64,000 nt of DNA from positions 23,048 to 87,047 of the forward strand of contig CAYJMS010000001.1 of assembly GCA_964371615.1 (NCBI GenBank). Reading direction: 5' to 3'. Both the position numbers and the translations under genes were made by a program. Position 1 is the first letter of the stretch, and each line of letters opens with the position of its first letter. Below, piece by piece: positions 49,974 to 55,980 of the stretch. Source of the stretch: an uncultured Chitinophagaceae bacterium. GTDB taxonomy: Bacteria > Bacteroidota > Ignavibacteria > UBA10030 > UBA8401. The notes below the pieces were generated by a model that was not told the DNA's origin, searched no databases, and saw only the letters and a list, made by a program, of their open reading frames with translations.

Positions 49974-51461
49974 TTACCTCACATCAAACCGTAAAAATCT
50001 CACAAACGCGCCGGCGAATGCCGCGAGCGAAAAAAATCCCAACAGTCCGAAATCAATCATCGTCGATGCTATTGCATCATTGAAGGTTTGTTTCGGATGG
50101 GTAAACTGCGGCATGTCAGAAATATCCAGCACCCCCTTTTCCCGGCCCGCATCGATCTTGACGCCGGTGTCGCTGTTCACTTCAATGCGGAATCCGCCGG
50201 AATTACCGGACTCTTTTTGTTTTTTGTCTTTATATGCATTAAAGACGGGACGGTATTCGTTTAACGCATCCTCGTACCGTGTTTTTAATGCAATATCTGT
50301 TCCTGCAATATGCATCGCCGCCAGTTGGAATGACGAAGCGGGTGAGAGACGGGAGAGCGTGAAGGCGAGATATTCCTGTTCCGCTTTCCGATTGCGGAGA
50401 TCCTCATTGAGCAATCGTGTCTGTTCGTCGATGTCGGCCTGTACCTGCTTGCGGTCCCGGTCGTCCTCTTCCATCCATTCCCACATTTTCGCATCCCGGT
50501 ATGCTTCGCGGTCTTCCTTGCTCATCCCTTGCAACGGGTCGTTCCGTTCTTTCCACTTGTCCTGCATTGTTTTCTCGTATTGCATCCACCGGTCTTTGGA
50601 AAATGCTTCACGCTGCGCTTCGATCTCCGCCACGGTCGGCACGGTGATGATATGTCCGGCCACTGTCGCTCCGGCACGCGGTAGTATAAAGACTATGCAA
50701 ACCCATAGGACAAGAGAGAAGAGAAAGGAGACGGACGATCGTTTGGTTGTTGTGGAGAGAAAGAGCCCCAGAGAGATGAAAAAGGTAACATACAAAAGCG
50801 ACGCTCCGAACAATGCGGCGATCTTTAGCCATTCTTCCGATTGCAGCGGAATGTTCCACAGCAGCAACAACAAAAGAGAAAGAAGCATTGGTACGATCAG
50901 GGGAATGATAAGGCCCAGCCAGGCTCCCATGAATTTTCCCGCAATGTATGTCGTGCGCGGTACTGCATTGGCAAATGTCAACTGCAGTGTCCCCCGTTCC
51001 GCCTCGCCGTTGACCGAATCGTACGTGAATAAAATGGCGAGCAGCGAAAAGACGACGGCAACAATGAATGCGAAATCGACAAACCGGAAAAGAGCATAGA
51101 TCGGATCGTCGGAGAATGTGCTATGCGACAGTTTGACGGCAAAAAAACTGCTGATGCCGGAAATTCTGCCGACATCGTTGTTGACGCCGGAGACAAAGAT
51201 CTGCATCGGATCCGGCTTGCGCAGAATCTTGTTGTTCAACGACATCCATCCGCGCGCTTCCCGCATCTCCTGCTGCACCAATTGCGTCGTCGCTTCATAT
51301 TGACGCGTTCCCTGTCGATAGTGGTCGATACCGACAATAATGGTAAGTATCAGCAGCAACGTAACGACGGAAAACGTTACGGAGAATTTCGGGCTGAAGA
51401 AAATATTCTTTAATTCGTGTGTGACAATGGTCGAAATCATAAGAGCTCCTTTTGTGTGCAT
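49974..51461 (-). CDS. ABC-2 family transporter permease with a large extracytoplasmic/coiled-coil insertion (DUF3526-like architecture).
   Basis: The protein carries the ABC-2 motif (GEAERGTLQLTF), 6 TM segments, and a roughly 200-aa charged helical region before the last TM. It is a paralog of the upstream gene. Confidence 0.75.
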   Translation of the reverse strand: MHTKGALMISTIVTHELKNIFFSPKFSVTFSVVTLLLILTIIVGIDHYRQGTRQYEATTQLVQQEMREARGWMSLNNKILRKPDPMQIFVSGVNNDVGRISGISSFFAVKLSHSTFSDDPIYALFRFVDFAFIVAVVFSLLAILFTYDSVNGEAERGTLQLTFANAVPRTTYIAGKFMGAWLGLIIPLIVPMLLSLLLLLLWNIPLQSEEWLKIAALFGASLLYVTFFISLGLFLSTTTKRSSVSFLFSLVLWVCIVFILPRAGATVAGHIITVPTVAEIEAQREAFSKDRWMQYEKTMQDKWKERNDPLQGMSKEDREAYRDAKMWEWMEEDDRDRKQVQADIDEQTRLLNEDLRNRKAEQEYLAFTLSRLSPASSFQLAAMHIAGTDIALKTRYEDALNEYRPVFNAYKDKKQKESGNSGGFRIEVNSDTGVKIDAGREKGVLDISDMPQFTHPKQTFNDAIASTMIDFGLLGFFSLAAFAGAFVRFLRFDVR

Positions 51462-51486
51462 ACTACCGATACTGCAGCTGTATCCG

Positions 51487-52905
51487 CTATCTCACATCGT
51501 ATTTCCTGAACGCAACAAACGCGCCGGCGAAAAAGAGGAGGTTGAAGACCGCCAGCATTCCGGTATATCCTGCATATGAACCGATCCCTTCTAAAATCCC
51601 GGCCTGTGCATACTGAAATTGCGGCATCTCGTTGATATTGATCGGCTTCGGCTTTTCTGCATTGTCATCCGTCATCATGCGAAAGACCATGGCGAAACCG
51701 CCGGTATTCATTCCGGTCTTTTCCTTCATAAAAAGCGCGTATTGTTTTTGATAATCCTTCGCCTGCGACAGGAATCGTTGTTCAAGCCGCAGAGAGGTTC
51801 CGGCGGCCTCTGAGGCGGCAAGCGTAAAAAGTGCCGAGGGAGAAATTCCGGAGAGAACGAGCGCTATGTGCTCCTGTTCGACTTGACGGTTGATCCGTTC
51901 CTCGTTGAGCCGTGCGGCAAATTCATTGAATCGTTTTTCCCGGTCGTCGGCAAGACCCTGCATGTATTTGTTGAATTCGTTCATCACCGACTGGACATCT
52001 CCCGTGGCGGTGGGAGTGAAACCGTTCAATTTCCCCCGGTCTTCGTTCCACAGCTGCGACATGAACCGGCTTTTCTGCGAATTGATTTCATCCATACTCG
52101 GTACTTTCACAAAGAGATCCGCACCCGCCACGGACAAGCGCGGAATGACCATCACCGTCATAATCCACATCGCAAGCAGAAAAAGAAACGATGTGGACGA
52201 CCGGTCTGTGGTAGCGGATATGAAAATGGAGAGCGACAGATATACTCCGATCGACAACACTCCCGCAGCAATAATCAAAACCAGCGAAGTCCATTCGGCG
52301 GCGGACAGCACAATACCGAAAGCCGGAAGAAAGAGCGTTCCGATCATCATCGGTATGAGCAGGGGAATAGTGAGTCCGAGAAATGAACCGATGAACTTTC
52401 CGGTAATGTATTGTGCCCTCGGCACGGCGTTGGAAAATGTCAGCCGGAGAGTCCCGCGCTCCTTTTCGCCGTTAATGGCGTCGTAGCCGAAAAGAATCGC
52501 AAAGAGGGAAAGGACAATGGAAAAAATGAAATCGAGATCGAGAAACCGGAACATGGCAAAGATCGGATCGTCGCCGTACCGGCTGTCCTGCGAACGGAGT
52601 TCCCCGCGGCCCCGTACTTCGACAGTTCGGCCGATGTCGTTCGATACGCCGCTGACCAGCGTTGCCACCGGCTGGGGAGGGAGAAAAATTTTGAACGAAT
52701 GCACCTGCATCCAATCGGTCAGGCCTTCGTACTGACGGACATTCGCCGCTTTCGACGCTTCGTACTGATTTTTTGCTACGCGGTAATTCTGTGCGCCGAT
52801 ATAAAACGAGAGCAGTATCAGTATCGAGCATATGCTGAACGTCACCGCAAACTTCGCCGAACCGATGATGTCGCGCAATTCTTTTTCAATGAAAAGTGTA
52901 ATCAT
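51487..52905 (-). CDS. ABC-2 family transporter permease; paralog of 49974-51461.
   Basis: It carries GEKERGTLRLTF and the same topology and helical insertion as its paralog. Confidence 0.75.
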   Translation of the reverse strand: MITLFIEKELRDIIGSAKFAVTFSICSILILLSFYIGAQNYRVAKNQYEASKAANVRQYEGLTDWMQVHSFKIFLPPQPVATLVSGVSNDIGRTVEVRGRGELRSQDSRYGDDPIFAMFRFLDLDFIFSIVLSLFAILFGYDAINGEKERGTLRLTFSNAVPRAQYITGKFIGSFLGLTIPLLIPMMIGTLFLPAFGIVLSAAEWTSLVLIIAAGVLSIGVYLSLSIFISATTDRSSTSFLFLLAMWIMTVMVIPRLSVAGADLFVKVPSMDEINSQKSRFMSQLWNEDRGKLNGFTPTATGDVQSVMNEFNKYMQGLADDREKRFNEFAARLNEERINRQVEQEHIALVLSGISPSALFTLAASEAAGTSLRLEQRFLSQAKDYQKQYALFMKEKTGMNTGGFAMVFRMMTDDNAEKPKPININEMPQFQYAQAGILEGIGSYAGYTGMLAVFNLLFFAGAFVAFRKYDVR

Positions 52906-55221: not shown

Positions 55222-55266
55222 AAAATCAAAAAATCATAAATTCATAAAATTTGTGCCGCCCATGTT

Positions 55267-55980
55267 TTATTTCGTTATCATCATCTGTCTCATCGGCTTG
55301 GGCTTTGTGAATGTCTCCGTCATTTCCTTGCCGCGGCGCGACAGTACGATGGTGACCGACTCTCCTTCATTCACACCGTCGTATGCTTTCACGAATGCTT
55401 CGGCGTTGACGACGCGAGTTCCGTTAATGGAGACAATGACATCACCTTCCTTCGGTGTGATCGAACGGAAATTCTTTTCGGCCGTCGGCAGTACGGAGGA
55501 TACCACGACACCGCTCTTTTTTGTTCCGAACGACAATCCGAGCGCCGGAAGCATCTCTTCGCCTTCCTTTTTTTCCATTTTGAAAACCATTCCGCCGTGT
55601 CCCCCGTCTTTATTCAATTCCTGATCGCTTTTTTTGACGAAAGCAGCGATCTGGAGGTGTTCCCCCCGTTTCAATCCCATTTTGAACTCATTGCCGGCGG
55701 TCGTGTTTTCGTACAGCGTGCGCAGATCGTTGATTGTTTGTACCTTTTTCCCGTTCGCCATCAGAATGATGTCGTCCTTCTTGATGTCGGCCTGCTGCTG
55801 ATCATTATTACCAAGAATGATATCGACGATCAGTGTCTTTTCTTTCGACACCACCACAACGCCGATTTCCCTTATGATCAATGCATCCTCCATGGATAAT
55901 GTCCGGGTGATCCGTTTCGGTTCCTGGTTTCCCTGCGTGATGAACACGAACGCTGCGAAAAACACAAAAATATATTTCAT
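55267..55980 (-). CDS. Secreted tandem-PDZ-domain protein.
   Basis: It has a signal peptide and two PDZ-like repeats (GVVVVS...DIILMANGKKV; GVVVSSV...DVIVSINGTRV). Confidence 0.7.
   Translation of the reverse strand: MKYIFVFFAAFVFITQGNQEPKRITRTLSMEDALIIREIGVVVVSKEKTLIVDIILGNNDQQQADIKKDDIILMANGKKVQTINDLRTLYENTTAGNEFKMGLKRGEHLQIAAFVKKSDQELNKDGGHGGMVFKMEKKEGEEMLPALGLSFGTKKSGVVVSSVLPTAEKNFRSITPKEGDVIVSINGTRVVNAEAFVKAYDGVNEGESVTIVLSRRGKEMTETFTKPKPMRQMMITK

Follow-up and report, generated by a model that had tools for sequence, protein, structure and literature searches.

The question raised by the minus-strand gene cluster at positions 49974-55980 of contig CAYJMS010000001.1 from an uncultured Chitinophagaceae bacterium, within a stretch of 64,000 nucleotides that was analysed as a whole (the window), is what kind of envelope machine is made up of one ATP-binding cassette (ABC) ATPase, two large paralogous permeases, a 506-aa accessory membrane protein and a tandem-PDZ protein encoded beside a divergent two-component system (TCS). 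With a rough probability of 0.55 the seven genes together encode a two-component-regulated, envelope-spanning ABC efflux pump of undescribed architecture that uses a non-canonical adaptor. An initial annotation of this DNA had seen an ABC module of unassigned family here, a reading that is partly supported by our analysis but which missed the adaptor-type hairpin of the accessory protein, the linkage of its relatives to TolC-family channel genes and the integral nature of the TCS and its operator.

All five minus-strand open reading frames (ORFs) and both genes of the divergent TCS are present where the initial annotation had placed them. The operon is headed by the tandem-PDZ protein gene (55267-55980, 237 aa), which had been described as following the operon and is actually its first gene, upstream of the gene for the accessory protein and putative non-canonical periplasmic adaptor (53701-55221, 506 aa). 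These are followed by the genes for the ABC ATPase (52951-53682, 243 aa), permease A (51487-52905, 472 aa) and permease B (49974-51461, 495 aa), all on the minus strand and tightly packed with intergenic gaps of 18-45 nt. The gene set of the module as first described holds but its count of four does not, as the operon numbers five genes with the PDZ gene included. Divergent from it on the plus strand lie a sensor histidine kinase gene (56133-57767) and an OmpR/PhoB-type response regulator gene (57764-58474), giving a seven-gene unit.

The accessory protein is where the evidence for a pump begins. Its AlphaFold model (pLDDT 81.6) consists of a signal-like helix (residues 6-28), a helical hairpin (38-70 and 76-103), three beta-sandwich domains and a C-terminal transmembrane (TM) helix (479-505). 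The last of the three sandwiches is a membrane-adjacent Ig-like NEW3 (NPCBM_assoc) domain at residues 384-453 (53863-54072, minus strand; PF10633, E 3.7e-11), and only a few residues further on begins the C-terminal membrane anchor (53707-53787, minus strand), supported by a hydropathy peak of 2.87 and a predicted helix and followed by a basic tail, KLSKK. A literature search for NEW3 domains in connection with ABC transporters found nothing relevant. The protein had been annotated as bitopic with a coiled-coil N-terminal region; the C-terminal TM helix stands and the N-terminal region is indeed helical, but it takes the form of a two-helix hairpin and the hydrophobic stretch ahead of it looks like a signal peptide cleavable at AQA|N, so that the mature form would keep the C-terminal anchor alone. 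Ahead of the hairpin the last residues are A-Q, and the glutamine, Gln31, is invariant in 44 homologues, which fits signal peptidase I cleavage and the Q-rule of Bacteroidetes (PMC5837995), a rule that is not established for the whole Fibrobacteres-Chlorobi-Bacteroidetes (FCB) group. The invariant N-terminus of the predicted mature protein reads FNQRDDKYRLLGLKRAKE.

The sole NCBIfam matches of the accessory protein are to three adaptor families (MdtN, CzcB and DevB) and cover residues 47-133, and its homologues give weak matches to an adaptor-hairpin Pfam family (precomputed HH_CzcB/PF25876). The adaptor signal is visible only when the hairpin (residues 38-103; 54913-55110, minus strand) is searched alone; the whole sequence compared with solved structures gave nothing significant, the best match being the hairpin of C. 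jejuni AcrA at an E-value of 0.35. A hairpin-only profile of 69 columns, made from 39 near and distant homologues and run against 177,635 PDB sequences, matched almost only periplasmic adaptors, each at its own hairpin, with E-values from 3.3e-5 to 0.05. At the head stood MexJ (3.3e-5), TriAB (7e-5), the Bacteroides adaptor 4l8j (8.6e-5) and MacA (1.2e-3), followed by AcrA, a MexC-like protein, EmrA, ZneB and MexA. The RxxxLxxxxxxS motif of MexJ aligns exactly onto R64, L68 and S75 of the accessory protein, which sit at the helix-turn-helix tip in the AlphaFold model and are conserved as R in 41, L or M in 44 and S or T in 42 of 44 sequences. This 'RLS' motif is the TolC contact in MacA, AcrA and MexA, and HlyD has it in an RLT form (PMC3391258). 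Judged by the presence of an alpha-hairpin with an RxxxLxxxxxxS tip the accessory protein is adaptor-like.

A second line of evidence comes from distant relatives. An exhaustive profile-free search recovered 489 clusters of distant full-length relatives of the accessory protein at 25-45% identity, and ten of their loci (L085-L094) were inspected. A gene of the TolC family (OEP) directly adjoins the accessory gene in six of the ten. The order is ATPase-accessory-OEP followed by two DUF3526 permeases in L086, OEP-accessory-ATPase-permease-permease with an overlapping stop and start in L088, accessory-OEP in L089, OEP-accessory-accessory-permease with tandem accessory paralogues (899-4211) in L090 and OEP-accessory-ATPase in L091; in L093, from Aminicenantes, the OEP gene is divergent from the accessory gene, after which come an ATPase gene and six genes for ABC-2 permeases. 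The other four (L085, L087, L092 and L094, one of them a short contig) carry the accessory gene with permeases and/or an ATPase and no OEP gene. For two relatives with long hairpins the OEP linkage had been predicted beforehand, and it was borne out in both. In addition there are natural fusions, P0194 and P0302 (892 and 924 aa), in which a DUF3526-type permease and an accessory homologue form one chain, with the signal-like helix of the accessory part retained as a seventh hydrophobic segment. Such fusions argue for a direct contact between adaptor and transporter, and for that contact only. Accessory-type systems are widespread in genomes of the FCB group, Acidobacteriota and Aminicenantes. 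As an observation in its own right, the six ABC2_membrane_2 permease genes of the Aminicenantes locus are consecutive and surround a single ATPase gene (9595-17491).

The engine to which such an adaptor would be coupled consists of one ATPase gene and a heterodimer of paralogous NosY-like type V permeases (structure models were of single chains only). Profile searches, suggested in the initial annotation, matched ABC2_membrane_2 (PF12679; 108.1 bits for permease A and 100.7 for permease B, cut-off 27.2) and DUF3526 (PF12040; 26.1 and 34.3 bits, cut-off 25) in both permeases, which share 37% identity from end to end (E 2e-110), and the description of two paralogous ABC-2/DUF3526 permeases is thereby confirmed. 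The permease membrane domain has the fold of a type V (ABC-2) exporter, with six helices that superpose on solved type V transporters, and among known structures NosY comes closest to the transporter core. Each permease has six hydrophobic segments with an insert between the fifth and the last, which is predicted to be helical, in line with the annotation, although its size is nearer 170-190 aa than the roughly 200 aa given before; judged from topology these TM5-TM6 inserts are periplasmic. In permease A the insert spans residues 266-436 (51598-52110, minus strand) and is modelled by AlphaFold as a helical bundle with helices at 271-294, 304-352, 356-368 and 372-397, the second of which is 49 residues long and is followed by an invariant S355-P356 at the turn where the chain doubles back; the DUF3526 match covers residues 323-396. 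The insert of permease B, at about residues 275-462 (50076-50639, minus strand), aligns with that of permease A, contains a DUF3526 match at 340-415 and is bounded by hydrophobic segments at 240-274 and 463-492. No mention of DUF3526 was found in the paper library that we searched. The ATPase matches ABC_tran (E 1.2e-27) and belongs to a DrrA/GldA/NodI-like class, its best NCBIfam matches all falling under their equivalog cut-offs; its translation shows Walker A (GGNGAGKTT), Walker B (ILLDEPTSGLD) and an H-loop, and it is presumed to act as a homodimer.

That the unit might be a divergent form of the GldAFG gliding and type IX secretion ABC system, or of the NosDFY copper-maturation system, is suggested by its FCB-group host, a neighbouring gene with a type IX sorting domain, an accessory protein hydrophobic at both ends as GldG is, GldF as the top NCBIfam match of both permeases and the NosY-like membrane domain. 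GldAFG shares with the unit its occurrence in FCB bacteria and the combination of an ABC-2 permease with an ATPase and an accessory protein whose ends are hydrophobic; GldF however is a single 240-aa permease and GldG belongs to another fold family (ABC_transp_aux), of which the 506-aa protein shows no match in Pfam or NCBIfam. The GldF model TIGR03518 gives 31.0 and 22.6 bits for the two permeases against a cut-off of 288.5, the GldA model TIGR03522 gives 134.9 bits for the ATPase against 402.6, and the type IX neighbour is syntenic in the closest relatives only. With NosDFY(L) the NosY-like core alone is held in common, as there is no NosD beta-helix protein, NosL or NosZ here, none of the three being found in Pfam and NCBIfam scans of the operon, the window or related loci. 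NosY is moreover a homodimer of about 270 aa with no DUF3526 insert. Because the defining partners are absent and the models fail we consider membership of either family very improbable, and the initial annotation was right in concluding that neither system fits. Anti-phage defence was also considered and rejected, PADLOC returning generic ABC-ATPase similarity only.

The divergent two-component system, annotated before as a neighbour of the pump genes, is co-conserved with them. The kinase carries HisKA and HATPase_c domains (Pfam) and a periplasmic domain of about 240 aa, and the response regulator carries Response_reg and Trans_reg_C (Pfam). Against the RprY model NF051850 the regulator scores 297.1 bits with a cut-off of 370, making it RprY-related but not an equivalog, and a literature search on RprY found no usable binding-site consensus. 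The divergent intergenic region contains a putative operator for this regulator (56058-56092, minus strand), recognised as a conserved pattern of four direct repeats in 10-bp phase, TTAACA-N4-TTAACA-N5-TAACA-N4-TTAAC. Of 66 orthologous intergenic regions, 55 contain the pattern with no more than one of its 22 specified positions mismatched, where shuffled regions never had fewer than five mismatches, and it matches once in the 64-kb window and not at all in 100 shuffles. A 10-bp-phased array of hexamers is the usual form of OmpR/PhoB-family binding sites, and from this match we infer that the cognate regulator would bind the four repeats and activate the pump operon, possibly along with its own.

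Downstream of the repeats towards the PDZ operon the stacked intergenic regions show a conserved GCAAC and, about 25-30 bp beyond the fourth repeat, a conserved TAnnTT(G)-like element. In the window it corresponds to TATGTTTA (56027-56034, minus strand), facing the PDZ operon. The Bacteroidetes -7 consensus being TAnnTTTG, this is a possible Bacteroidetes-type -7 promoter box. A scan for sigma-70 promoters and intrinsic terminators gave counts no better than shuffles, as expected of a Bacteroidota-like host. Among loci of sufficient length nearly all carry the response regulator and kinase genes together with those of the pump, and the TCS with its conserved operator is an integral, co-conserved part of the unit. 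Distant relatives of the system have other dedicated regulators (extracytoplasmic function (ECF) sigma, GerE).

How far the unit is conserved was assessed by mapping the seven window proteins with tblastn onto 84 related loci. Among 80 genome loci, essentially every one of sufficient length keeps the order and orientation of response regulator-kinase, diverging from PDZ-accessory-ATPase-permease A-permease B, and this holds for Ignavibacteria/Bacteroidota, KSB1, Zixibacteria and Calditrichota alike; the flanks differ between lineages and are unrelated outside the closest relatives. The conservation of the neighbourhood, proposed as a check in the initial annotation, is in this way borne out. 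More than 1,200 homologues of the accessory protein were found, with identities of 60-70% across metagenome-assembled genomes labelled Ignavibacteria, Bacteroidota, KSB1, Zixibacteria, Calditrichota and others. Across phyla the ATPase is about 70-90% identical, the accessory protein 55-78% along its whole length and the permeases 40-80% with the minimum in their periplasmic inserts. The PDZ protein shows just 21-48% identity and the periplasmic part of the kinase 20-35%, compared with 40-86% for the catalytic core of the latter. It may be observed that the accessory protein is better conserved across phyla than the membrane domains of its own transporter, and that the PDZ protein and the kinase periplasmic domain are fast-evolving. 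Permeases A and B form two distinct orthologous lines in all loci, from which it follows that their heterodimer is old. Separately, one and the same permease A gene of Zixibacteria is split into two ORFs in one assembly (L003/L040, 12310-13732) and intact, at 473 aa, in another (L004, 11459-12880), the split probably being an assembly frameshift rather than biology.

The immediate neighbours of the unit in the window are the gene for the 1023-aa protein with the type IX secretion sorting domain (46835-49906, plus strand), a 329-aa ORF (58576-59565, plus strand) with a lipobox-like N-terminus (VAIGC), taken as a lipoprotein, and a 491-aa ORF (59587-61062, plus strand) which we take, without a family-library scan, to be a sigma-54-type activator. 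All three were considered as members and rejected on the ground that their synteny does not extend beyond the closest relatives (L005-L012).

The product of the first gene of the operon contains two PDZ_2 stretches (Pfam), matches TIGR02037 at E 8e-14 over model positions 257-431 and, among PDB structures, matches DegP and DegQ across their PDZ1-PDZ2 regions. It is not an HtrA protease, as it corresponds to the PDZ1-PDZ2 part only and leaves no room for a trypsin-like protease domain; to judge from its sequence it is a secreted DegP/DegQ-type PDZ pair that lacks the protease domain. Most loci have the PDZ gene at the head of the operon, and it is missing from one sub-clade (L030, L042, L044, L052, L054 and L082), whose three readable intergenic regions (L042, L044 and L054) have three TTAACA repeats and not four.

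Taken together these features may be fitted to the following scheme. The accessory protein would be exported, lose its signal peptide and be held in the membrane by its C-terminal helix, its three Ig-like domains forming a stalk beside or around the permease inserts that lifts the hairpin outward. The N-terminal hairpin would then dock on a TolC-family outer-membrane channel encoded elsewhere in this organism, and ATP-driven movements of the permeases would drive a substrate located in the periplasm or embedded in the membrane into the conduit and out of the cell. This substrate would most likely be an amphipathic compound or peptide that is toxic. The kinase would sense an envelope or chemical cue, upon which the phosphorylated response regulator may bind the four TTAACA repeats and switch on the PDZ-adaptor-ABC operon. 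The tandem-PDZ protein would be a variable accessory, probably capturing peptide-like ligands by their C-termini for the pump or the sensor.

A number of findings weigh against an efflux pump of this kind. There is no TolC-family gene in the window, and in 80 FCB loci the 8 kb around the module contain none either, except for one that belongs to an RND operon. Neither Pfam nor NCBIfam finds a lipoyl, beta-barrel or membrane-proximal domain in the accessory protein, and the model shows nothing before the hairpin; this is why the system is not a canonical adaptor-based pump. A Foldseek search with the whole accessory protein returned generic tandem-Ig matches only (integrin calf domains, S-layer and ciliary proteins) with TM-scores below 0.31. 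The hairpin similarity is short, covering about 40 residues of coiled hairpin, 15 of 44 accessory homologues also weakly match the OEP family itself, and several of the distant relatives with OEP linkage have not kept the R of the motif. The signal-like helix retained in the fusions would fix the hairpin at its base to the inner membrane, which is hard to square with a distal hairpin and would favour one packed with the permease inserts. Finally NosY, the nearest solved relative of the permeases, belongs to a copper-loading mechanotransducer and not to a classical exporter.

The shortness of the hairpin similarity, the OEP cross-matches, the lost arginine, the absent adaptor domains, the fusions and the NosY kinship together are the reason that two other readings keep some weight. 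In the first the unit is a periplasmic mechanotransducer in the manner of NosDFY, FtsEX-EnvC or LolCDE, in which ATP-driven movements of the inserts are passed on to the accessory protein, and perhaps to the PDZ protein, so that some component of the envelope is loaded, activated, extracted or remodelled, with no transport across the inner membrane or out of the cell. Large conserved periplasmic parts and an accessory protein with its high identity across phyla would fit such a multi-partner machine, as would FCB modules that are not accompanied by a channel gene and fusions that hold the hairpin near the inner membrane. This explanation however leaves unaccounted for both an adaptor-type hairpin with a TolC-binding motif and the channel genes that stand beside the accessory gene in most of the distant loci inspected, and no NosD-, EnvC- or amidase-like client enzyme is conserved in the unit among the mapped loci. 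We regard it as unlikely, though by no means negligible.

In the second, which we hold to be a little less probable again, the unit exports a lipid, glycolipid or polymer of the cell's own envelope, as do DevBCA-HgdD, Wzm/Wzt and KpsMT, and is induced by its TCS for envelope remodelling. The weak DevB match at the hairpin points in this direction, and with an adaptor so strongly conserved a fixed cargo of endogenous origin seems likelier than varied xenobiotics. Among the related loci, however, the unit is not co-conserved with any biosynthetic genes (glycosyltransferases, polyketide or lipid synthases), the flanks differ in every lineage, and the regulators vary between TCS, ECF sigma and GerE in a way typical of stress and resistance modules. 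Because regulators vary by lineage and co-conserved biosynthetic genes are absent, an inducible function in detoxification or resistance fits better than housekeeping biogenesis.

The nearest functional analogues of the unit are tripartite ABC pumps, with YbhGFSR closest followed by MacAB-TolC and DevBCA-HgdD, and not the Gld or Nos systems. YbhGFSR of E. coli comprises the adaptor YbhG, the ATPase YbhF and the paralogous ABC-2 permeases YbhS and YbhR, probably working with TolC, and has in common with the unit a single operon for an adaptor-like protein, the ATPase and a pair of paralogous ABC-2 permeases, together with an adjacent dedicated regulator; its channel is encoded elsewhere, as would be the case here (PMC7190983). 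The differences lie in the adaptor, which in YbhG is a canonical one with lipoyl domain, barrel and hairpin and here is a hairpin with three Ig-like domains and a C-terminal anchor, and in the permeases, which unlike YbhSR are of the ABC2_membrane_2/DUF3526 type with a large periplasmic insert between TM5 and TM6. In place of a TetR repressor the unit has a two-component system, and it has a PDZ protein in addition. MacAB-TolC resembles the unit in its RxxxLxxxxxxS-tipped hairpin, that of MacA being among those aligned by our profile, and in that its transporter has its own periplasmic domain, a feature suggestive of mechanotransmission. The cargo of MacAB is peptide and amphipathic, and that of DevBCA-HgdD is heterocyst glycolipid. 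Genetic coupling of a TCS to the ABC transporter that it presumably induces is a feature of the LnrJK-LnrLMN and Bce-type modules of Firmicutes, and LnrLMN like the present unit has one ATPase and two ABC-2 permeases. Those modules however are monoderm and have no adaptor, outer-membrane channel or PDZ protein, and Bce kinases lack a sensor domain, unlike the kinase here with its periplasmic domain.

To our knowledge all adaptors described so far share one plan of membrane-proximal domain, beta-barrel, lipoyl domain and hairpin. We propose tentatively, and at rather less than even odds, that the 506-aa protein represents a new class of periplasmic adaptor with the hairpin at a free N-terminus, an Ig-like stalk and a C-terminal anchor, coupling NosY-like heterodimers through their DUF3526 helical hairpins to outer-membrane channels. 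It would provide a fourth solution to trans-envelope efflux beside RND, MFS and MacB/type I secretion systems, and in the FCB group would be wired to a dedicated TCS and to a PDZ protein that senses or delivers cargo.

Elsewhere in the window, on the plus strand, several other loci attracted attention. A 2961-aa ORF (611-9496) with GH94 supersandwich and catalytic domains and a glucoamylase-like domain has the architecture of a cyclic beta-1,2-glucan synthase, and a TamB-like 1635-aa protein (25421-30328) followed directly by an Omp85/POTRA protein (30359-32674) looks like a TamB-TamA pair. Next to each other, in this order, lie genes for a KaiC-like double ATPase and a B12-binding radical SAM/DUF4070 protein (36934-40198), and an MlaE-MlaF-MlaD lipid-transport operon (40427-42968) is a second envelope ABC system of the window.

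If the efflux reading is true, the module that docks on TolC has been put to use again in another scaffold, made up of a bare hairpin, an Ig-like stalk, a C-terminal anchor and a NosY-like transporter. It would also offer a first functional handle on DUF3526 permeases and on the NEW3-domain membrane proteins encoded next to ABC transporters, both of them large uncharacterised families. Being compact and strongly conserved and having a clear predicted operator, the unit may serve as a tractable model of inducible envelope defence in the mostly uncultivated phyla in which it occurs (Ignavibacteria, Zixibacteria, KSB1 and Calditrichota).

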